Source: Bugula neritina
Taxonomy: Eukaryota > Animalia > Bryozoa
Length of the DNA: 64,000 bases
Assembly (NCBI GenBank): GCA_964035545.1
Contig: OZ037766.1
Coordinates: 13,816,722-13,880,721, forward strand
Direction: 5' to 3'
Positions 5,134 through 35,400 of the stretch are shown one piece after another. Position 1 is the stretch's first letter, and each line of letters opens with the position of its first letter. A program made the translations under genes and the position numbers. Under the pieces are notes generated by a model. That model saw only the letters and a program-made list of their open reading frames with translations. It searched no databases and had not been told where the DNA came from.

Positions 5134-5775
5134 TTTTCTACAAAATGAATAATTATTTAATTTAAACAGCTTTCACCCTCAAACTCGCTGCCACTTGTTC
5201 CACTTCCTGCTTCCAGTTCCATCTACTCTTTATTTTAAATCAAATGACTAATCTTATACTAATGTAATTGTGAGTAATATTTATTACTATTACTATTACT
5301 ATTAGTATTACTATGTCTATTAGTATCACTGTAAGTATTAAGATTAATTACACTTGCACCAAGTAATTAGATTGAACTTTAGGTTGCTGTTGGTGTTACG
5401 TATACTTATATTTATACTTATACAGTTATAGTAAATAGTTATAAATGTACTTAATCTTATAGTTATTGTGTTAAACTTAAACTAGTAATACTAATAATAT
5501 TACTGTAATACTAATACTAATAGTAATAGTAATAGTAATACTAATGAGTAATGAGTAATACCAATAATGTATTAATTATAATATTAATAACACTAACAGT
5601 AACAGTAAATCATTTACTCATTAGTCATTACTGATTTAGTAAATGTAATAGTAATACTAAATCTAATAGTAATATTTAGTAATATTTCCAAGAAACTACT
5701 GTAAATGTAAGTTTACTATGCAACTACAATTCTCAATTCAAAATCAAAGGTAATGAAATTGCATTATAAACTCAC

Positions 5776-8145: not shown

Positions 8146-8809
8146 TCATCACTATAATATTATTGTTCACTTTGAAAATCGCTTGGTGGTCACCAAGTGC
8201 GATGGTTTGGGGGCCTAGAGTTTAGAGTTCAGACAATGATGTGCATACAGATTCTATCTTTAGTCATCCCAACTAGGGGCTGCTTCTAGCGATATTATTT
8301 CATTTTCATTTAATTTAGATGATTTTTTGCTTACATCGCATTAACTTTAAGTTTATAAGCATGATCCCGGTTGCCATGTGTATTAATTTTTTCTTTAAAT
8401 AATATGGTGCCCGTTAATATTACGGTTTAATAAGGACAATTTGATAAGATATTTTCACACTTTGATGAGTAAATGTTAAAAATAAATTTAATTAGACAGT
8501 GAAGTTCCTTTTCAAGTTCACCTTGAAGATGCAATACAATTTTATTTTTAATTAATAATTTACAAATTAAAATTAATATACTTCTACCTCTAAACTCTAG
8601 TTCTATCTAGTACTAGTAAAAGTAACCATAATGATAATTTTCACTGTTAGTGTTAGGTTAAGAATTTATTTTTATTCCTGGATTCACTTTAAGTTGAAGT
8701 TACTAGTTAGACTTAGTCTTACTCTTAGCAACCATATTCATATTCATATTGGGTTAATGCTAATACCTAATACTAATGGTAATAGTAATACCAATATTAA
8801 TAGTAATAG

Positions 8810-9215
8810 TGTAATGGATTTTGCATGTACTTGTTTCCGGTTGCCGAGATCGGCCGAAATACCGAAAATCGGCGTTTCGGGCTACCGAAAACCCGAAATG
8901 CCGAAGTTCGGTGTTTCGGACTACCGAAATGCCGAAACGCCGAAATTCGGCGTTTCGGATGCCCGAAATGCCGAAGTTCGGCGTTTCGGGCCTCCGATCT
9001 CGGCAACAATGACAAAGCACTGTATCTTGTTGTATATAAAAGCCAGCGAGCTCCAGTGTTAGTCAGTCTACTACTGGAGCTCACTGGCAGAGGACCTTTA
9101 ATATATTATATCATTCAATTAAATAAAGATTTCTTCACTTTTACAATACATCTTGTTCTCTCTAACAAAGAGTATGTTCAGGCACTAGTTCTATTCAACC
9201 CACAAAAATACAACA
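8810..9215 (+). repeat. 5' LTR (406 bp)
   Basis: Starts TGTAATGG and ends ACAACA; TATA box TATATAAA at 9033-9040; AATAAA at 9122-9127; direct repeat of 16446-16851. Confidence 0.97.
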
Positions 9216-9216
9216 T

Positions 9217-9240
9217 TGGTGGCAGCAGTGGGATTTCGAA
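9217..9240 (+). other. Primer binding site complementary to the tRNA-Leu 3' end
   Basis: TGGTGGCAGCAGTGGGATTTCGAA immediately after the LTR; near-complement of the tRNA-Leu end ...TTCGAATCCCAC(C/T)GCTGCCA-CCA. Confidence 0.8.
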
Positions 9241-9265
9241 TAACTAGTTGCCAAAGGGGAACGAG

Positions 9266-10180
9266 ATGGCTCCGCCAGGGGAAACAGCCCCTGGGGCAAC
9301 GGAGACGGAGACACCAACCCTCACAGTAGAGGCTTTGGTTGCAGCCCTCCAGGGATTGCGGGAGCCAAGTCAGGCGCCACCTGGTGACAGGTACCGCCTC
9401 AAGCTCCCGAATTTCGGAGGGGAGGAGGATGTGGAGCAGTTCATCCGCGAGTTCGAAGATGTGGCCACCATCGCTGAATGGCCAGCCCCGGTGCGCATAC
9501 TTCAACTCCGGTCCTGTCTGACAGGCCAGGCGAAGAGCTTTGCTCTTGGGCCTGATGAAGCCCACATCCTGCGGGCCCTCAGGGCCCGATTCGGCCGGAC
9601 AGCCGAAGAGGCTGTGGATCGGCTACAGGCACTGAGGCGAAACCGCAAGACGACGTTAGAAGAGCATGCCAACACCGTGGAACGGTTGGCCCAGGCTGCT
9701 TACAGCCACGCCACAGGTACAGAAAGGAAGCGCCTAGTATACAACGCATTCTTTAAAAGCGTCAACGACTCTGGCCTGCAGCGCTACTGGCTGGCCGCCA
9801 AAGTTCGCACCTTGGAAGAAGCCCTGGAGATGGGCAAGTCATATTTCCAGGTGGAAGGGCTCCAAGAGAGGAGCTTCACCGCACACCAGGTAGCCGAGGG
9901 GGACCCAGAGGACGCCACACCCGTAACTCCACAAGTGTCGGCAGCGACAACTCCGTCGCCAGAACAGGCGCAGTTCGCCGTGTTAGTGGACATGATGAAG
10001 GGTCTACAGGCTACGGTAACCGAACTACAACGGAACCAGGCGGACAGGCGGGCTCCCCGGATACGGGACGACTCTGTCCGCCCCTCACAGCTTACCTGCT
10101 GGGGATGTGGAGCGTCTGGGCATGTAAAGAGACATTGCCCCAAGGGTAGCTTGCCTTTAAACAACCGAGGCTCACGGTAA
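9266..10180 (+). CDS. gag: Gag (capsid-like region + CCHC zinc knuckle)
   Basis: ORF 9248-10180, first ATG at 9266; LPNFGGEEDVEQFIREFEDVA..W capsid-like start and C-terminal CWGCGASGHVKRHCP (CX2CX4HX4C). Confidence 0.93.
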   Translation: MAPPGETAPGATETETPTLTVEALVAALQGLREPSQAPPGDRYRLKLPNFGGEEDVEQFIREFEDVATIAEWPAPVRILQLRSCLTGQAKSFALGPDEAHILRALRARFGRTAEEAVDRLQALRRNRKTTLEEHANTVERLAQAAYSHATGTERKRLVYNAFFKSVNDSGLQRYWLAAKVRTLEEALEMGKSYFQVEGLQERSFTAHQVAEGDPEDATPVTPQVSAATTPSPEQAQFAVLVDMMKGLQATVTELQRNQADRRAPRIRDDSVRPSQLTCWGCGASGHVKRHCPKGSLPLNNRGSR

Positions 10181-10224
10181 CTTCCGCCGACCGTGGGCCC
10201 CCAGCCAACCCCATCCGGGGGAGG
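10156..10224 (+). promoter_or_regulatory. -1 programmed ribosomal frameshift signal (U UUA AAC + predicted H-type pseudoknot)
   Basis: TTTAAAC at 10156-10162 is correctly phased in gag; the -1 frame is open into pol; 6-nt spacer; stem 10169-10178/10190-10199; loop 10181-10189 can pair with 10216-10224. Confidence 0.85.
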
Positions 10225-10233
10225 GGTCAGGGA

Positions 10234-13200
10234 ATGACCAAGAAGACCCCTACAGCGTCTGACGAGATGGGATGGCAGACACCTCGGAGATCTCGGAAAC
10301 CGAAAGGTTTACCCGATCCTCCGGTCATGCCACTCAACACCCGGATGGAGTCAGAAGACGTAGGATGGCAGGCACCTCGGAGATCTCGGAGACCGCAAGG
10401 TCTACCCGATCCTCCGGCCTGGCCACTCCAGAACCGGTTCGCGGGGTTACCCGAGGAAGTCGTGGAGGAGGACTCAGCTTACTCGCAAGAGTACCCCAAG
10501 CTGCCCTCCCGACCTCAGAAAACCCCCGTTGTCTCTAAGACGATGAGGAGGCCCGCTGTGCGGACCCAAGTTGTGTCTCCCCCAGAGACTAACCGCTCCA
10601 GGAGCACCCAACCATATGGAAGCAGCTACTTCCTACCCGGAAAAATTTCGGGTAAAGCTGCCACATTCCTACTGGACACTGGGTGCACTACAAACCTGCT
10701 GAGTAGGCGTCTCTTTGACACTCTTGGTGCCCGAGAGCGGGCGAGCCTCGAGCCGTATGAGGGTGCGCATGGTACGTTGGCGGACGGATCATGCATTCCC
10801 TTCTACGGCATCCTTTCACTGCCTGGACGCATCCGTGATCAAGCAATTCACGAGACATTCATAGTCAGCCAGCTGAAGGAGGACGCCATCCTGGGAATGC
10901 CGTTTCTGGAGAAACACCAGTGTCACATGGATTTCCAGAAGTCAGTGGTGGTGATGGCTGGGAAAGAACTTGTCTGTGTTGACAAGTTCGGCAGGCCCTT
11001 GGTGGGCGGAGTCCAGGTAGTGCGGGACTGCACAGTTCCGGGAAGATCCCAGGCAACTCTTCGCTGCAGGGTCAACTGCAGGGAGATTGCTGACCTAGGG
11101 GTGGTTGAGGGAACGCACGGAGCGATCCGACTAGCAAACAGCCTGAATCGGCTAGATTGTCGGCAAGAGCTTCTCGTGCAGTGTATCAACCCCTTCACGG
11201 AACCTGTCCGATTATCGGCCGGAGCGCTAGTGGGGAAGTACCACTCCATCCAGGACGCGGATGTGGGTCCGGCACTGGAAACAGTGGCCGATACCCAGGG
11301 AAACCCCCCTCGCACCAGCCGAAGAGCAGTCCCGGAGCATATGGCTGACCTGTACGATGGAGCGTGCGGCAACTGTACGAGTAGTACTGAACGCCAAGTA
11401 CTGGCTCAACTACTCGCGGAGTACAGTGATGTCTTCAGTCGTGGTGATGAAGACATGGGGCTGACTAAGGTTATCTCTCACGAGATACCCCTGGCAGCCG
11501 GCACCACTCCCATCAGGCAGCCCACCCGGCGTCTAGGCCCGGAGAAAGAGAAGGAGGTGAGCCGACAGGTGCAATATCTTCTCAACCGGGATCTGATTGA
11601 GCCTGCCCACGGTGCGTGGAGCTCTCCAGTAGTCCTGGTCAAGAAGAAAGATGGTAGCTGGAGGTTCTGTGTGGACTACCGCAGACTCAACAGCGTTACC
11701 ATCCAAGACGCCTACCCTCTCCCACGGATAGATGAGTCTCTGGATGCCCTCGCGGGTAGCAAGTACTTCAGTACTTTGGATCTGCTTAGCGGGTACTGGC
11801 AAGTGCCCCTCAGTCCTGATGCCCAGGACAAAGCAGCATTCATTACTCGCGATGGGCTCTGGAAGTGGAAAGTACTGCCATTTGGACTAACGTCCGCCCC
11901 GGCAACTTTCCAACGGCTCATGGAGCAGGTCCTCAGTGGACTACACTGGAAGACCCTTCTCATCTATCTGGACGACGTCATTGTCATCTCTCCAGACTTC
12001 TCGACTCATGTCAGTCGTCTGCGGGAGGTCTTTGACCGTCTCCGGGCAGCTGGACTCAAGCTGAAGCCCTCCAAGTGTGCACTCTTGCAGCCGGAAGTCA
12101 CGTACCTGGGCCATGTGGTGGGCCGTGATGGGGTCGCTACCGACCCGGAGAAGGTACAGGCTGTGAAGGAGTGGACTGTCCCCCGTGACCTCCCTGAGTT
12201 GCGCGCATTCCTGGGCCTAGTAGGGTACTACCGGCAGTACATACCTGGCTTCGCAGGAGTGGCTCAGCCGTTAAATCGGCTGACCGCAAAAGGGGTCCGG
12301 TGGCAGTGGACGCAGGAGGAGCAGCAGGCATTCGACCACCTCAAGCAACGGCTAATGGAGGCGCCAATTCTGGCGTATCCTGATCCAGCCAAGGAGTACA
12401 TCCTGGACACCGACGCCAGTGACCACAGCGTGGGAGCTGTCCTGTCTCAAGTCCAGGGTGGAAGCGAGGTGGTCGTGGCTTACTACAGCAAGACTCTCGC
12501 GGCCGCCGAGAAGAACTACTGCACCACTAGGAAGGAACTCCTAGCAGTAGTCAAGGCGGTCAAGCACTTTCGGCCATATCTGTATGGGAGAACGTTCCGT
12601 TTGCGAACAGACCATGCATCACTGATATGGTTGTGTAAACGTGCGGAGCCCTCGAGCCAGGTAGCTCGTTGGCTAGAGATTCTTGCCGAGTTCTCTTACC
12701 GGATAGAGCACCGTGCTGGCCGGAAGCACGGGAACGCCGACGGCATGAGCCGCCGGCCGGTAGAGGACTGTAAGCAATGCCTGCACATTGAAAAGCGGGA
12801 CGGGGGACCCGCTCGCCTTGACGTGGAAACAGAGTTAGGGGAAGGCGCCGTCTATCGGTGGGAGCACGGCCATCTTCGGACCGAAACCCACTCAGACGAC
12901 GTCCAGGCGCTCCGCGCCAACCCCACTCTGTACCAGAATGTCAAGGAGCTGTGCCGACTCCAGGAGACGCTACCCGGCGCGGTAGCGGACATTTTCCGGG
13001 CCAAGAAGGAGGGCCGACGACCTAGCGAGGAACAGCAGCGGCAGGGGGACGTTGAGTTCCAACTCCTCTGTCGTCGCTGGGATGCCCTCAAGGTCAGTCC
13101 TGATGGCCTCCTGATGATAACGTTAGCAGCAGACAACCGTCAGCAGGAGAGGGACCGCGTCGTCTGTCCACGCGCCCTCCGACGGGAACTGATCTGGGAC

Positions 13201-16119
13201 ACCCATAAGCAGGCTCATTCTGGAGTCAGTCGGGTCATCAGGTGTCTGCGGCTGCGTTGGTATTGGCCCGGAATGACTCGGGACGTACGACTGCGGGTAC
13301 GGCAATGCGAGGTCTGCCAAGCTAGCAAGCATGGCCGCCCCACGGAAACCACTGGTCGACGCCGGCTATACGCTGGTCGACCGTGGCAAGTAGTGGCGGT
13401 AGACCTCGTCGGGCCTATGCCGTTATCCGCCAGAGGGAACACCTGGATACTGGTGCTCACGGACCACTTTACCCGGTGGGCAGATGCTCTGGCTATTCCA
13501 GACGCAACAGCCCCCACGGTGGCCCGGGCCCTGGACCAACATGTATTCTGTTACCTCGGTTTACCCGAGCAGATACATACGGACCAGGGTGCCCAGTTTC
13601 AGTCCCAGCTCATGGGAGACCTCTGCCGGATATGGGGGGTGAACCAGAGTCGGACCACCCCATATCACCCGCAAGGGAACGGAGTCGTCGAGCGGAACAA
13701 CAGGATGTTGGGTGACGCCCTCAGGAGCCTGCTCCTTGGTCGAGGTCAGGAAGAATGGGACGTGGTGCTGCCGCAAATCATGCGGGCCTACCGCAGCACA
13801 CCACACTCCGCCACGCAGGAGACCCCAAACTTCCTGATGCTAGGCCGAGAGACGCGGGTTCCGGAACACCTGACCTACCATGTTCCTGCCCCCGAGTCAC
13901 CGGTACACGAGTATGTGGAGGGTCTGATAGATATCATGGGCAAAGCTCATGATGCGCTGCGTACCCAGCAGTGGCAGACTCGCACAGAGGACTCGGAAGA
14001 GCCCCCGTTGTACCAGGTGGGGGACTGGGTCTGGATGGTGAGCTATCGTAGGCGACGCGGACAGTCGGCTAAGCTTCAGCCCAAGTTCGTCGGTCCCTAC
14101 TGTGTAGTGGAGGTGCTGCCCAACCACACGTACCGTGTGGAGCGCTCTGGCCAGGTCTCGGTCCAGAGCGAGCAGCGCCTGAAACCTTACCATGCCAGCC
14201 CAGACGCAGTGGGTCAGGCACCACCCTTCTTGGAGCCCAACCGCCAGCCCAACCAGCGAGGGAGAATTACCCAACCCAGAGAGGTGGAAATCATCGTTCA
14301 GAGAGAGGCAGCACGTGAACAGGCCGCCCTACGAGAACAATTAGAGCGGCAACAAAGACAGGGGCAACAATTACCACCATCACAAGCTTCGGAGATACCG
14401 CCCCAACCAGAAGGAAGCGTCCCCACCCATCACACTGATGACAACAGGACCCCTCCTGTTACAGTAGTCGAAGAATCACAAGCCCTGACAGAACCCATCC
14501 AACTCGAGAGAAGCCAGAGAGACAGAAGACCCCCCAGATACTTAGCAGATTATGCAGTAGGACGCCTTGAAGTACCTCCTCGTAGTCTTAGTCCTTATAT
14601 TCCCATATACTATCCTACCTTGAGTGACAATTCTCTCAAAGACTCACAAAAATTTCATGAACAGAAGAAAAACTCAGACCGAAATTCGGTGGGCACGCGA
14701 TTACCTGAGTTATCATTTCAAAATTGGATGGAAATTCCCACGAGTCACGTGGCCATCGCCGCTGTAGGTAAAAATTTTAAAACACGAGGCTCGGCCATTA
14801 TTACTACAGCCATCGCACAAGCAACACGCAATTTAGAAATTAAAATACAAAATTTAAATTTTGATTTTAAACTACAATCGAATTCTAACTCAAACATGGA
14901 CTCCACACTCGTCGAATCTACTAACATCACCTCAGGTATTCCCTTACGATTAGAACCTCCACAAACGGAGTCTAATCAAATTAATGTTGATTGGGGTTTG
15001 TTAGATTCTTTAGAATCTGACTTATTAGAGCCAGATACCGAGATGGGTCTGGAAGGTGACCCTGTCCACGATTTCTTGTTGGACCAAGACGTGGGCTCGG
15101 TCACACTTTCAGACTCATCTCGGCCCCCAGTATGTAGTTTAGTGCCTTATAAAAGTATGCCGAAATTCGGCGATAGAGAGATCGGCTTCTCACAGCCTCT
15201 CCTATCTGTTGTAGGAAATAGTATGGATATAGATGAGGTCGGGTCGAGTTGTACCAACTCCCCCCCTCCCCCGGCCCCTGTCCCGGCTCCCAGCAGCCAA
15301 CAGGGCGCCACTCCACCGACAGGGGTGCCTCCCACCATCATCAGTGCCCCTGTGTCTAACCCGGTCGAGCTCCAACTCTCGGCCGGGGAAGAGCAGGGCA
15401 TACTGCTCGGTGGGGAACCCACGGAGAGAGATGATGACTCCCAGATACTGGCCTTGCCTCGGGCCTTGGTCGCCCGCCAGTACTGGGTCTCTCGAGAGAC
15501 CAACTTAAAAATTAGTCAAACGTGCGGCGAGCCGGGCAACCGCATCTGCCAGCAGTGTCGGAGGAAGTTTTCCTCCACACGGCGGCTGCGAGTTCACGCC
15601 CCGCAGCACTACATTAACGTGTTCTGCCCGTGTGGCGAGTTTTCCTACCAACGCGATTACGTGCTGAGGCACCAACGCATCGCACGCTGCCACACGGGCC
15701 ACACGTTTGCAGTGGACCAGGCCAGTTTCCCCGAATTCCGGGACCTGGTGCTGCCCCACGTTGCGGACCCCCGCAAATGGGCTACCCTTGCCCAAGGGTT
15801 TCCCGCATGCCGCCCAATCAGGGAGGTAGAGGAGGAGCCCGTCGCCACGCCTCAACCAGCGGCCACCCAGCCACTTCGGGTCGTGCTGGCACGGGTCGAA
15901 GGCGGCAGGTCCGGGTCCCCGGGCCTGAGCCAGCGACCCTCGGCGACGGGAAGAAGAAGACGGCCCCAGCGTAGCGCCACCAGCCACGCTGCATCCCTGC
16001 CACTGGAGGAGGAGGTCCGGTCCCTGCGCCGGCGCCTGAGACGATACGAGGACGAGCTGGGAGAGCTGAGACGACGAGTGAGCCGTTTGGAGCGGGCACG
16101 CGATACCGACCAACAATAG
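10234..16119 (+). CDS. pol: Pol polyprotein (protease, RT, RNase H, integrase) with ~520-aa C-terminal extension carrying 2 zinc fingers and a leucine zipper
   Basis: LLDTGCT (protease); YLDD (RT); ILDTDASD (RNase H); HKQAH...CEVC plus VAVD/TDQG/VERNN (integrase HHCC and DDE); KFVGPY (GPY/F); typical IN tail ERSQRDRRPPRYLADY ending ~14553; ORF stays open to 16119. Probably made as Gag-Pol through the frameshift at 10156. Confidence 0.96.
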   Translation: MTKKTPTASDEMGWQTPRRSRKPKGLPDPPVMPLNTRMESEDVGWQAPRRSRRPQGLPDPPAWPLQNRFAGLPEEVVEEDSAYSQEYPKLPSRPQKTPVVSKTMRRPAVRTQVVSPPETNRSRSTQPYGSSYFLPGKISGKAATFLLDTGCTTNLLSRRLFDTLGARERASLEPYEGAHGTLADGSCIPFYGILSLPGRIRDQAIHETFIVSQLKEDAILGMPFLEKHQCHMDFQKSVVVMAGKELVCVDKFGRPLVGGVQVVRDCTVPGRSQATLRCRVNCREIADLGVVEGTHGAIRLANSLNRLDCRQELLVQCINPFTEPVRLSAGALVGKYHSIQDADVGPALETVADTQGNPPRTSRRAVPEHMADLYDGACGNCTSSTERQVLAQLLAEYSDVFSRGDEDMGLTKVISHEIPLAAGTTPIRQPTRRLGPEKEKEVSRQVQYLLNRDLIEPAHGAWSSPVVLVKKKDGSWRFCVDYRRLNSVTIQDAYPLPRIDESLDALAGSKYFSTLDLLSGYWQVPLSPDAQDKAAFITRDGLWKWKVLPFGLTSAPATFQRLMEQVLSGLHWKTLLIYLDDVIVISPDFSTHVSRLREVFDRLRAAGLKLKPSKCALLQPEVTYLGHVVGRDGVATDPEKVQAVKEWTVPRDLPELRAFLGLVGYYRQYIPGFAGVAQPLNRLTAKGVRWQWTQEEQQAFDHLKQRLMEAPILAYPDPAKEYILDTDASDHSVGAVLSQVQGGSEVVVAYYSKTLAAAEKNYCTTRKELLAVVKAVKHFRPYLYGRTFRLRTDHASLIWLCKRAEPSSQVARWLEILAEFSYRIEHRAGRKHGNADGMSRRPVEDCKQCLHIEKRDGGPARLDVETELGEGAVYRWEHGHLRTETHSDDVQALRANPTLYQNVKELCRLQETLPGAVADIFRAKKEGRRPSEEQQRQGDVEFQLLCRRWDALKVSPDGLLMITLAADNRQQERDRVVCPRALRRELIWDTHKQAHSGVSRVIRCLRLRWYWPGMTRDVRLRVRQCEVCQASKHGRPTETTGRRRLYAGRPWQVVAVDLVGPMPLSARGNTWILVLTDHFTRWADALAIPDATAPTVARALDQHVFCYLGLPEQIHTDQGAQFQSQLMGDLCRIWGVNQSRTTPYHPQGNGVVERNNRMLGDALRSLLLGRGQEEWDVVLPQIMRAYRSTPHSATQETPNFLMLGRETRVPEHLTYHVPAPESPVHEYVEGLIDIMGKAHDALRTQQWQTRTEDSEEPPLYQVGDWVWMVSYRRRRGQSAKLQPKFVGPYCVVEVLPNHTYRVERSGQVSVQSEQRLKPYHASPDAVGQAPPFLEPNRQPNQRGRITQPREVEIIVQREAAREQAALREQLERQQRQGQQLPPSQASEIPPQPEGSVPTHHTDDNRTPPVTVVEESQALTEPIQLERSQRDRRPPRYLADYAVGRLEVPPRSLSPYIPIYYPTLSDNSLKDSQKFHEQKKNSDRNSVGTRLPELSFQNWMEIPTSHVAIAAVGKNFKTRGSAIITTAIAQATRNLEIKIQNLNFDFKLQSNSNSNMDSTLVESTNITSGIPLRLEPPQTESNQINVDWGLLDSLESDLLEPDTEMGLEGDPVHDFLLDQDVGSVTLSDSSRPPVCSLVPYKSMPKFGDREIGFSQPLLSVVGNSMDIDEVGSSCTNSPPPPAPVPAPSSQQGATPPTGVPPTIISAPVSNPVELQLSAGEEQGILLGGEPTERDDDSQILALPRALVARQYWVSRETNLKISQTCGEPGNRICQQCRRKFSSTRRLRVHAPQHYINVFCPCGEFSYQRDYVLRHQRIARCHTGHTFAVDQASFPEFRDLVLPHVADPRKWATLAQGFPACRPIREVEEEPVATPQPAATQPLRVVLARVEGGRSGSPGLSQRPSATGRRRRPQRSATSHAASLPLEEEVRSLRRRLRRYEDELGELRRRVSRLERARDTDQQ

Positions 16120-16159
16120 GGCCACTCTTTATATTGACACTGGTGGAGGGAGCATGTTT

Positions 16160-16295
16160 ATTTTATTGCTTTGCATGATACTACTTTTGTTTATTGTTTT
16201 GCATGATATTACTTATTTTATTGCTTTGCATGATATTGCTTTTGTTATTGTTTTGCATGATGTTACTTTGTTTACTACTTACATGATATAGCTTA
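16160..16295 (+). repeat. ~27-bp tandem repeat (5 copies, TTATTGYTTTGCATGAT core) in the retrotransposon 3' UTR
   Basis: GCATGAT/ACATGAT cores at ~16173, 16201, 16228, 16255 and 16281. Confidence 0.85.
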
Positions 16296-16445
16296 TGTGT
16301 CGCATGCTGTTGATTGTTTTTTTTTTTTTTTTTTTACCCACCATATTATTTCTTGTGTTGTCCCCCACGCTGTTTCATTTTTGTTGTTGTTGCGCAAATC
16401 CACATTTCCTCTTATCGGAAAGTATGCTTTCCGATGGGGGGTGTG

Positions 16446-16851
16446 TGTAATGGATTTTGCATGTACTTGTTTCCGGTTGCCGAGATCGGCCGAAATACCG
16501 AAAATCGGCGTTTCGGGCTACCGAAAACCCGAAATGCCGAAGTTCGGTGTTTCGGACTACCGAAATGCCGAAACGCCGAAATTCGGCGTTTCGGATGCCC
16601 GAAATGCCGAAGTTCGGCGTTTCGGGCCTCCGATCTCGGCAACAATGACAAAGCACTGTATCTTGTTGTATATAAAAGCCAGCGAGCTCCAGTGTTAGTC
16701 AGTCTACTACTGGAGCTCACTGGCAGAGGACCTTTAATATATTATATCATTCAATTAAATAAAGATTTCTTCACTTTTACAATACATCTTGTTCTCTCTA
16801 ACAAAGAGTATGTTCAGGCACTAGTTCTATTCAACCCACAAAAATACAACA
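16446..16851 (+). repeat. 3' LTR (406 bp)
   Basis: Matches 8810-9215 at offset 7636; preceded by a G-rich PPT and followed by the TSD ATAG. Confidence 0.97.
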
Positions 16852-17083
16852 ATAGTAATACTCAGTATCACTATCAGTATGAGTAGGATTTTTGCTATGT
16901 CTATTAGTATTACTATTAGGCATTAGCATTGAGTACTGCTGGAGTTTAACCCAATATTAATAATAATAATTAGTAATAATAATAGTTAATACTAACATCA
17001 AGTATGACTACTACTACTATAACTACTACTGCTGCTACTATTACTACTTCTGCTACCAGTATAACTACTAGTATTGTTGTATT

Positions 17084-17579: not shown

Positions 17580-17795
17580 GTTGTATTATACTTGAATTAC
17601 CGCACACGCTGAATTACTTTACTGTTATGTTTTATTCGTATGCGTTGTTATAGTTCGTATGCTTCTTCTCAAAATACATTCTCTTGGTATTAACACAACA
17701 TGGTGGTCAGTACAAAGTTTTAAGTTTATCGTGTTTAATCCGTGCCATCTGCTGTCCTTGGTTTCTTTTGCTGGCGTTATTGACGATTTACTGCT

Positions 17796-20717
17796 ATGGC
17801 AAAGTTTAATCCACCTCCTGAGTTTGACTTTATGCCAGAGAAATGGGCAGAGTGGGCCAAGAGATGGAGTAGATATAGACAGTTTCAAAGTTAGATAAAG
17901 AGGAGGAAGAAATACAAATAAATAGTTTCCTGTATTTTATGGGACCTACAAGTGAAAGCATCTTTATCGGCCTAGGTCTCTCCAAAAAAAAATAAAAATA
18001 AATACAATGAGGTGCTAGCTGGATTTGAGAACTACTTCTCACCCAAGAAATATGTCATCTATGAAAGAGCAAAGTTTTTCAAGCATGACCAGCAGCAAGC
18101 CGAATCAGTAGAACATTATATTCGTGCTTTAAACAAGTTGGCAGACAAATGTGACTTTGGAGATAAGCGAAAGGAGTTTCCTAGTCTTTTTCTGGCCTAG
18201 GTAAAATGAGCCAGGAGGCAGAGATTCAAGTAAACACTGGTTTCCTTCCCCCCTATGCTATTTGTGTTCCACATTGTGCCGTATCCATTATTAAATAAGG
18301 TGAAGGCTGAGTTAGATGAAATGGTAGAGTTAGGAGTCATCTTCCCTGTTTGTGAACCAACTGATTGGTGCTCACCCATGGTTACAGTCCCCAAAGCAAG
18401 TGGTCGTATTCATATATGTGGAGACTACACTCAGTTGAATAAAGTACTCAGGAGGGAGGTATGCCCGATGGCCCATGTCGACTCTAGTCTAACTAAATTA
18501 GGTAATGGGAAAGTTTTCAGCAAGTTGGATGCGAACTCTGGGTTTTATCAGATACCCCTGTCCAAGTCTAGTAAACTCCTTACTACATTTTTGACCCTGT
18601 TTGGTCGGTTTGCTTATCATAGGTTGCCGTTTGGGCTGTCATCTTGCCCAGAGATCTATGCCAAAGTTGTGTCACAGGTTCTTTGTGGTCTAGAAAGAGT
18701 TAATGTCTATAAGGATGATGTTTGTGTCTGGGGCAATACTGTGGAAGAACACGATGCTAGAGTTCGTGCTGTCCTCAGACGCATGTCTGATGCAGGAATG
18801 ACTATGAACAGTTCCAAATGTGAATTTTCTAAAAGTTTGATCAAGTTTCTAGAACATTCAATTTCTGATAAAAACATTCAAGCCAACCTTGAGGCAGTTC
18901 AGGGGATTAGAGGTTTCAGAACTCCTCGGTGTGTCTCAGATGTTTGTAGCTTCTTGGGTATGGCAAATCAGTTGAGTAAGTTTACCCCCAAATTGGCGGA
19001 GCTATCTAAGCCTCTCAGGGATTTTTTGTGTAAGACTTCTCCTTGGTTCTGGGGCGAGGCTCAGTCTATAGCCTTTGCCCAAATCAAAGAGGAGCTGTCG
19101 AGAAATTTCGTTCTTGCGGCTTATGACCCGAAGGCTGAGACCATTACACAGACTGATGCATGCCGGAATGGCATTTGTGCTGTATTGCTGCAGCTTCAGC
19201 TTCTCGTGCTTTGACCGATATTGAGAAGAGGTATGCAACCATCGAACAGGAGGCACTTGGGGTTGTGTGGGCATGTACTAAGTTTAGAAACTACATTACA
19301 GGTATCACAGTCAAGATACAGGCTGATCACAAGCCTTTGATCCCATTACTGAATGAAATCAAACTGGATAAACTGACTGTTCGCATTCAGCGTTTCAGGA
19401 TGAGGCTTATGAGGTTTGCGTATGTCGTTGAACACACTGCTGGTAAGGATAATGTGCTTACTGATGCATTATCTCGCTCACAGGCTTCACTCAGTGTGGA
19501 TGAAGTGGCTTTTGTGGAGGAGGTAGAGTTGGCCGTGAAGAAGAATCATAAGTCGTTTGCTTCTAGTCAGAGGCTCGTGCAGTTAGCAAAGTTACAAAGA
19601 GCTGATGAAGTCTTGGCCCAAGTTATTGAGTTTGTTAAGACCTCATGGCCGGAGTACCTTATCAATCAGGATATACTTCTTTGCCCTTATTTTGAGTCAA
19701 GATCGTTCATTTCTATTCAAGATGGGTTGTTGGCGCTTAGGAACCGCATTGTTATTCCACAAGTTGAGAGATTGGAAGTTCTTCGGACTTTTCATCAAAG
19801 TCATTTATGGTGACCAAGTGCCGTGCTCGGGCCAGGCAGTATGTTTGGTGGTCGGGTTTATCTCAGCAGATTGCTGACATAGTACGCCAGTGTTCCAGAT
19901 GTGTTGGTTTCAGACAATGGTCCCCAGTACGCCAGCCATGAGTTTGAATTGTTTGTTTCTTCTTACCAGTTTGCCCATGTCACTAGTTCACCAAAGCCTC
20001 CTCAGGCTAATGGAGAGGCTGAGATGGCAGTGCAAACAGTCAAGTCCCTGCTCAAGAAAGAGGCAGATCCATACCTTGTACTGTTGGCCTATCGATCTCC
20101 TCTGGAGAATGGCTTGTCTCCTGCTGAGCTGTTGATGGGCCGAAAGCTGAAGACTACTGTTCCCGCGCTTCCTAAGCTGTTAGTCCCTCAGCCTGTAGAG
20201 AGATTGGCAGTTCAGGAGAAAGAAGAGTTGAAGCGAAGTCAAGTGAGAGAGGATTTTGATATTAGCCATAAAGTTGCACCACTTCCTCCGTTGAAACGAG
20301 GCGGCAGTGTGAGAATTAGAGATTTGAACAGGGACGCAGTAGTTATCCAACAGTGCGCACGGAGATCTTGCACTTTTCAAGACACAGGTGGTACTGGGTT
20401 AAGACGCAACCGTAGAAGTCTCACACCAACCCACTCATCTGAGTTGAGCAAGTAGCGTAGCTGTTCAGTTCAAGGACCAACCAATTCATAGTAGTCCCAG
20501 ACAGACCGCTGTATTTGGTACTGAAGCCCAACAATTCTCATCAGATGTTAGGTTGGATGTTCAGCCCCGAGAAAAGCCAGTTCAGGTTAGCCCCTACCAG
20601 GTAGTTGTTCTTCTAGATAGGGCCAAACAAACCCACTCAGTTTCTAGCTCTGCTGTTCGTTTGTTCAAAACTAAGTCTGGTCGCGAAATCCGCGCTCCGC
20701 TAAAGCTTGACCTTTAG
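17796..20717 (+). pseudogene. Disrupted gag-pol of the Mag-like element
   Basis: gag start MAKFNPPPEFDF..PEKWAEW with frameshifts and stops; RT fragment 18255-19214 (WCSPMVTVPK, KLDANSGFYQI, YKDD); RH fragment 19160-19813; IN fragment 19901-20455 (SDNGPQY, NGEAEMAVQTVK); tail KTKSGREIRAPLKLDL*. Protease and part of IN are deleted. Confidence 0.9.
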
Positions 20718-21250
20718 CCTCCTGTCTCGTGCCCTGTTATATTCTGATATCATATTCCGATGTTATATTCTGATATTATAATCTGGTATTATGTTCTCAT
20801 AATGTTTAACATGTTTGTAATTTTATTCTTATTAGCCTATTAATACTTGCTAAATTCATTTATACGCTTTGTATCACTTTTCGTATATCACTCGTGTTTA
20901 CATTTCAGTTGTGTTTGTTTTAGAAAGAGAGGTGTTGTATTATACTCGAATTACCGCACACGCGGAATTACTTTACTGTTTTGTTTTATTCGTATGCGTT
21001 GTTATAGTATGTATGCTTCTTCTAAAAATACATCCTCTTGGTATTAACACAGCAAGTATTACTACTAGTACTACTGCTGCTGCTACTAGCTACTGTAAGA
21101 CTAAGAGTATAAGTGTAGCTACTACCAGTTCTAAAAACGAGTGAAGCAAATACGAAAGTGTAACTAAGAAGTTTTTGTAAAACCAGTAGTAGTAGTAACT
21201 GCAAATAACTTTCTTTTCATTTTTTTATTTTCAGTATGATGTTGCTATTT

Positions 21251-25568: not shown

Positions 25569-35400
<9,832 letters not shown>

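Follow-up and report, generated by a model that had tools for sequence, protein, structure and literature searches.

A palindromic U3 array and a candidate self-encoded regulator in a Ty3/gypsy retrotransposon of the bryozoan Bugula neritina

Transcription of LTR retrotransposons is thought to depend on host factors, and DNA-binding activators made by the element itself are known from complex retroviruses and from plant DNA transposons. In the 64-kb stretch of Bugula neritina DNA analyzed here (the window), an LTR retrotransposon carries a dense palindromic array in its U3 region, and the pol gene of the same element ends in a zinc-finger tail. What purpose does the array serve, and is the tail its binder? 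The initial annotation took the array for a candidate operator of the element's own zinc-finger/zipper protein or, alternatively, for a folded RNA or a DNA cruciform. We find that the array is real and non-random, and that it is probably functional. To judge from its sequence, it is likely a cluster of DNA-binding sites in the U3 enhancer, and the zinc-finger/zipper tail of the element is likely its predicted binder. Our best explanation goes further and is tentative, possible rather than probable: the tail protein would bind the dyad sites and regulate transcription of the element, as Tas does in foamy viruses.

An intact element and the layout of its U3 array

The element (8810-16851) is an intact Ty3/gypsy LTR retrotransposon, with the LTR ends, target duplication, primer-binding site, polypurine tract and order of gag-pol domains of this group. 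Except for the palindromic features, which are given without strand, all parts of the element described here as genes or signals lie on the forward strand. Its 5′ LTR (8810..9215, 406 bp, TG...CA) and 3′ LTR (16446..16851) are identical at 406 of 406 positions, and the insertion is therefore very recent. A 4-bp target duplication, ATAG, flanks both LTRs (8806-8809 and 16852-16855). The primer-binding site at 9217..9234 is one that we take to be of the tRNA-Leu type, and a short, G-rich run resembling a polypurine tract lies at 16433-16441. A gag open reading frame (ORF) with a zinc knuckle (9248..10180; its zf-CCHC match in a Pfam scan, E 0.029, misses the cut-off that the pol domains pass) is joined to the pol ORF (10150..16119, 1989 codons) at a TTTAAAC slippery-type heptamer in a −1 arrangement (10156-10162), which suggests passage from gag to pol by a −1 frameshift. 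The pol ORF encodes protease, RT, RNase H and integrase, followed in frame by a tail of ∼510 residues. At the start of pol, 5′ of the protease, lies a 93-bp tandem duplication with copies that are 81% alike (10243-10428), and the 3′ untranslated region contains four 27-bp U-rich repeats (16158..16280). The hexamer TGCATG, which we take to match the RBFOX RNA element, occurs three or four times in these repeats and once in each LTR, giving six in the element.

Within the LTR, a TATA box assigned by consensus (9033..9039) and an AATAAA poly(A) signal (9122..9127) set the presumed borders of U3, R and U5, and thereby place the array in U3. The array (8840..9007, with a second copy at 16476-16643 in the 3′ LTR) comprises 22 CCGA half-sites, four 27-bp dyad units and a closing 14-bp inverted repeat. 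This inverted repeat is exact, as described in the initial annotation, positions 8840-8853 being the reverse complement of 8994-9007 with no outward extension. The four units of about 27 bp are likewise all real and dyad, although the coordinates first given for two of them were one base off. Unit 1 (8854..8880) has its core at 8861-8873, with one mismatch to the 13-bp core dyad RCCGAANTTCGGY; unit 2 (8893..8919) has its core at 8900-8912; unit 3 (8932..8958, core 8939-8951) is a perfect dyad; and unit 4 (8963..8989) has its core at 8970-8982. Two extra unpaired half-sites, which had gone unmentioned, stand in front of unit 2 (8885) and unit 3 (8924), and both 14-bp arms are degenerate CCGA..TCGG cores in their own right. 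In all, 12 forward and 10 reverse half-sites follow an 8-base rhythm, with direct, inverted and everted spacings. The high CpG density noted at the outset was borne out (26 CpG in 168 bp, observed/expected 1.94 versus 0.48 and 0.43 in two host flanks), as was the short distance to the TATA box, which begins 25 bp behind the array.

Sequence variation within the array is uneven. The CCGA half-sites are intact in 22 of 22 cases, whereas the two-base spacers beside the outer half-sites differ from CG in 6 of 10. Two of the 40 LTR variants listed (there are 210 further ones) fall in the array, both in spacers (8891 and 8952), and were not weighed. In three of the four units the dyad symmetry extends to a one-base center, which a hairpin could not use and which therefore counts in favor of DNA sites. 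The units recur with periods of 39, 39 and 31 bp, which show recent duplication. Because the half-sites arose by duplication, they are not independent of one another.

Copies of the core and folding of the array

A search of the window for RCCGAANTTCGGY with no more than one mismatch returned 10 matches, where 0.07 are expected and none of 100 shuffles did as well. Four lie in each LTR and two, both perfect, in the tail region of pol, while the 56 kb of host DNA in the window contain none. Since the motif was defined from the LTR, the internal copies, which the initial annotation did not mention, constitute an independent test. The first (14678..14690) is located in the AT-rich linker behind integrase. 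The second (15159..15171), which has 14 of 14 bases in common with LTR unit 3, begins 4 bp behind an internal TATA-like box, and the two are in different reading frames. An 11-bp version of the core is also present in gag (9407-9417), where it codes for an LPxFxG-like motif and fails the 13-bp core. Three internal copies of the 11-bp core arose in 6 of 5000 synonymous recodings; 3000 codon shuffles and 1500 Markov runs never produced that many. Taken singly, the copy at 14679 is rare among recodings (14 of 5000). The copies at 15160 and in gag at 9407 arise in 688 and 685 of 5000 same-protein recodings (∼14% each), and, being this common, may be by-products of peptide motifs; for the gag copy this is probably so.

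The array might instead act as a structure, either as a stably folded 3′ end of the genomic RNA (with a role in stability, export, packaging, strand transfer or as a source of small RNAs) or as a DNA cruciform, and we consider this improbable. Its predicted RNA fold has a z score of −14.3, with 0 of 200 shuffles as good, and the terminal 14-bp stem forms with a pairing probability of 0.95. The sense strand folds better than the antisense strand (−117.1 versus −109.3 kcal/mol), and four of five spacer mismatches could form G-U pairs in the sense strand, although chance would give this about one time in five. Contigs of runs X11 and X12 (two studies; guessed to be RNA runs) cover the 3′ LTR bin. 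However, any cluster of palindromes folds, and here several folds compete without the regular one being preferred. The multibranch RNA of four hairpins proposed in the initial annotation reaches −98.2 kcal/mol, 19 kcal/mol worse than the best fold of the sense strand, in which unit 1 pairs with unit 2. Pairing probabilities for the units' own hairpins are 0.0 for units 1 and 2 and 0.66-0.73 for units 3 and 4. Nor does each unit form the stem of about 13 bp once ascribed to it, the maximum for an isolated unit being 12 bp, with a mismatch in unit 1. Moreover, a structural role leaves unexplained the invariant cores, the unpaired extra half-sites and the lone internal 13-bp copies, which fold weakly with their flanks (−5.8 and −7.1 kcal/mol). 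A comparison with Rfam gave 13 weak matches, all far below gathering scores. A second hairpin (9042..9088 and 16678-16724, forward strand, −31.8 kcal/mol), separate from the array, is located directly 3′ of the LTR TATA box and spans the likely transcription start. On balance, clustered dyad DNA sites describe the array better than a four-hairpin RNA does.

A related protein permits a further comparison. P0028 is 71% identical to the tail over its finger end, and its ORF reads through into the LTR of its own element, such that its last 55 residues match the translated array and TATA region of the window (best E 1e-6). These residues would allow for at least three cores, in an arrangement that differs from that of the window's array, which also argues against a structural role. 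Contigs of runs X1, X2 and X3 (two studies; 3 of 3 deep runs not labeled as RNA) cover all bins of the array at 80% likeness, and contigs of the RNA run X19 cover its distal part, in each case as a sign of presence only. The element family is highly multi-copy and diverse. No metagenome, genome or viral contig matched the array pattern, and protein-based scans for the DNA of relatives confirmed 0 of 47, 0 of 297, 0 of 21 and 0 of 28 candidates. Eight viral loci matched a looser form of the array pattern and were rejected, as none has gag or pol similarity.

These observations bear on whether the array has any function at all. It could have been built by template switching and slippage during reverse transcription, or descend from a small DNA transposon that entered the LTR. 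The recent duplication evident from the 39-, 39- and 31-bp periods would fit such an origin, and in so young an element decay would not yet be visible. Nevertheless, we regard the absence of function as very improbable. The flanks of the 14-bp arms share no direct repeat and thus provide no target-site duplication, and a MITE or other non-autonomous DNA transposon inside the LTR was rejected on this ground despite the inverted repeat. In addition, contigs resembling the array are present in all three of the deep runs just described, the relative with 71% tail identity keeps core sites, and the internal copies would be left without an explanation.

The zinc-finger tail of pol

Behind integrase, the tail opens with a 105-codon AT-rich linker. 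An acidic stretch comes next, and a proline-rich linker connects it to a zinc domain of 124 residues, behind which lie a basic patch and a helix of 38 residues. The acidic, hydrophobic stretch (14896..15222, residues 1583-1691, D+E 0.17, K+R 0.05) begins with an ATG at 14896 and is, by its sequence, a candidate activation region. The zinc domain (15457..15828) belongs to an unnamed family and combines a C2H2 finger with a CxC finger, wrapped by helices; the first finger fits Cx2-4Cx12Hx3-5H, and the CxC arrangement of the second is non-canonical. The basic patch (15949..15972) is a candidate nuclear localization signal, and the terminal helix (16003..16116) resembles a leucine zipper, with four heptads and alternating E/R at positions e and g.

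Both the finger domain and the zipper pattern are conserved. Among 1.84 billion cluster representatives, 160 are related to the zinc domain at E≤0.001, and the six metal ligands are invariant in all 79 members chosen for alignment. Pfam has no family for the window's own zinc domain; among the relatives, zf-C2H2_4 in 12 of 79 and zf-C2H2 in 7 of 79 are weak matches at E≤0.01. The structural model of the domain (pLDDT 94) has no match at E≤0.001 in Foldseek searches of the PDB and viral models. Its best neighbors in VIA-align are tandem DNA-binding fingers, with Kaiso at Z 3.9 (rmsd 2.6, 57 residues aligned), a weak likeness since no neighbor reaches Z≥5. The lack of a strong match by either method is not evidence of a new fold, and the best match in the ESM Atlas (0.91) is an unnamed C2H2 cluster. 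Two tandem fingers of Kaiso, ZNF524 and SALL4 align with the domain over 51-57 residues (rmsd 2.5-3.7). Unlike these proteins, the tail has a CxC second finger, no TGEKP linker and extra wrapping helices, and Z values stay below 4.

Leucine occupies the four d positions of the zipper in 21, 32, 31 and 27 of 37 aligned rows, with the E/R alternation mostly kept, and the window's helix has leucine at four of five d positions. A homodimer prediction for the zipper, run without an alignment, scored 0.11 (mark 0.32) and was not weighed either way. The tail protein is not a bZIP protein, because a disordered linker (coil with pLDDT under 50, plus a proline) parts the basic patch from the helix; Pfam likewise reported no bZIP family.

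The fusion of the tail to pol looks real from the reading frames. The frame of the 105-codon linker is free of stops in only 15 of 20000 shuffles, and the other frames contain 4 and 11 stops. In P0151 a single ORF contains the integrase-end motif and the finger, with the same junction as in the element, and P0167 has a protease joined to the finger in one ORF. Database searches found no long fused proteins, a weak negative by the method's own warning. P0167 and P0175, which are distant, each encode in a single ORF a protease of the retroviral type, a long spacer, the finger and a coiled coil, and neither has RT or integrase; they possibly represent a non-autonomous element that retains the regulator.

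An open linker frame fits an extension of integrase as well as a free regulator. The tail could therefore stay on integrase and bind the array in order to load the element's own cDNA, with no role in transcription. Finger domains of transposases use subterminal repeats, and 30 bp lie between the U3 end and the start of the array. The frame that stays open from integrase into the tail is compatible with such a tether, as are the junctions in P0151 and P0167, and C-terminal tethers are described in other gypsy elements (PMC11302176). A tether nonetheless fails to account for the acidic stretch or for the internal core sites, which are taken as lying 0.9 and 1.4 kb inside the element, one of them beside the TATA-like box, and the failure to find long fused proteins argues weakly against it. 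We consider a tether without transcriptional function quite improbable.

A protein of the host, from the same finger family or an unrelated one, might also bind the array as an enhancer while the tail does another job, and we regard this as unlikely but less so than the alternatives above. The sequence evidence for DNA sites would fit any binder, and binding sites for host factors are generally clustered in the U3 of LTR elements. Of 10 proteins looked up, the only relative with a name comes from another bryozoan, Watersipora subatra, in which a gene (XP_067940964.1/XP_067940963.1; P0031/P0169) encodes two of these finger domains and a C-terminal coiled coil, with XP_067940964.1 39% identical to the tail. 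A host gene that has the domain twice means that a host protein could be the binder. The gene may be a domesticated tail; alternatively, the tail may derive from it. Conversely, the core is absent from the 56 kb of host DNA in the window, a small sample that includes a host gene; its sole extra copies are located at the element's own finger gene; and the spacing of the repeats departs from the usual consensus for IRF, HSF or STAT sites.

A candidate self-regulatory circuit and known systems

We therefore return to the tail protein as the candidate binder of the array. The operator proposal of the initial annotation gains from the recurrence of the core dyad in the tail region and nowhere in host DNA, from cores that stay invariant as spacers vary, and from the conserved fingers and zipper; its leucine-zipper protein is not of the bZIP type, and its four-hairpin fold is not predicted. 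In our model, two tail molecules would join through the zipper, each two-finger domain would read one CCGAA half-site, and a long flexible linker would let the dimer use direct, inverted and everted spacings alike. The acidic stretch might then activate the LTR TATA promoter 25 bp away, or prevent methylation of the CpG-dense U3. Translation of Gag-Pol would yield the tail at its C terminus; an internal promoter, at which a site 4 bp behind the TATA-like box could provide feedback control, might be a second source.

The putative internal promoter centers on this box (15148..15154). Only three matches to TATA[AT]A[AT] occur in the element, one in each LTR and this single internal one, and its position 4 bp before an internal core has a rough chance of 0.006. 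Candidate start codons are located at 14896, before the box, and at 15223, after the second dyad; methionine is kept at 15223 in 18 of 36 aligned rows of relatives and at 14896 in 4 of 8, figures that are inflated by gene-caller starts. The box encodes the Tyr-Lys of a conserved PYK, which may be a motif of the protein rather than a TATA box. PYK is kept in 12 relatives, of which six, all more distant, lack the dyad peptide (P0032, P0042, P0043, P0050, P0062 and P0091). The peptide encoded by the second dyad is matched by 11 relatives among the 176 proteins collected, with Asn or Lys at the free center codon in 11 of 11 and P[NK]FG in 8 of 11. Contigs of runs X11, X12 and X20, at 88% likeness, cover pol and hardly the tail, although gaps between contigs are uninformative, and no RNA joint for an internal transcript appears in the contig matches listed.

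Foamy-virus Tas, the closest working model for what we propose by analogy, binds DNA in the LTR and the internal promoter and needs dimerization (PMC4929722). As in that system, an element-encoded protein lies at the 3′ end of the genome, and the same dyad is found in U3 and before the finger domain (four per LTR, two in the tail region, 0 elsewhere). The element itself is no foamy virus. It is a Ty3/gypsy element with no env-capable ORF between pol and the 3′ LTR, its candidate regulator is in frame with pol instead of being a separate ORF, and the zinc-finger/zipper tail has no detected similarity to Tas. A broader proposal, more doubtful than the circuit in this one element, is that of an animal Ty3/gypsy lineage with its own transcription factor at the end of pol and its operator in the U3 array and beside an internal TATA box. 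Such a lineage would possess an env-less, foamy-virus-like two-promoter switch, with finger and operator free to co-evolve in each family and with the domain shared by host genes.

A second parallel is VANC of the Arabidopsis VANDAL transposons, which binds motif arrays of its own elements and removes methylation (PMC5735166). There, too, short motifs amass by tandem repeats in non-coding element DNA. However, VANDALs are plant DNA transposons whose VANC motifs have one orientation, whereas the window's array consists of dyads, is CpG-dense in a CpG-depleted host and is paired with other protein domains. Additional coding capacity between integrase and the 3′ LTR is also reported for Retand, whose TRP28 is antisense and is proposed to have a regulatory role through DNA binding, with no target named (PMC11963269), for rotifer gypsy elements, whose ORF3s encode other kinds of protein (PMC5408684), and for the CR domain, an integrase tether of gypsy elements (PMC11302176). 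In the portions available, these accounts describe neither a C2H2-type or zipper tail nor a matching LTR site. The available text of a preprint on transposases as activators makes no mention of retrotransposons (10.64898/2026.08.24.746577), and U3 is described as the most variable part of LTRs (PMC3601003). Our literature search, which covered openly available articles other than repeat-library reports, and these in part, brought up no paper on a gypsy element that combines such a tail with corresponding sites in the LTR; an earlier description of the tail elsewhere is possible.

If binding holds, gene control of the complex-retrovirus kind would reach into simple elements, through a gypsy element that encodes a regulator and carries the operator for it. 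The pairing is directly testable with the 124-residue domain and the 13-bp site. Furthermore, at least 160 unnamed protein clusters contain the zinc domain and might provide natural finger/site pairs.

The surroundings of the element yielded several minor observations. Its insertion site is a simple-repeat tract of the TAGTAA/TAC type (8760-8809 and 16852-17070), and like tracts occur at 5270-5700 and behind a second, decayed gypsy-type element at 17580-21054, which has 121-bp LTRs (93% alike) and a broken pol. In this decayed element, a one-case contrast, the finger tail was not found by tblastn and the palindrome array is absent. On the reverse strand, an exon of a host gene with MORN repeats, presumably resembling junctophilin, is located at 34945-35400, probably together with 27512-28006 and 26405-27364. 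The retrotransposon lies on the downstream side of this gene or in a late intron.
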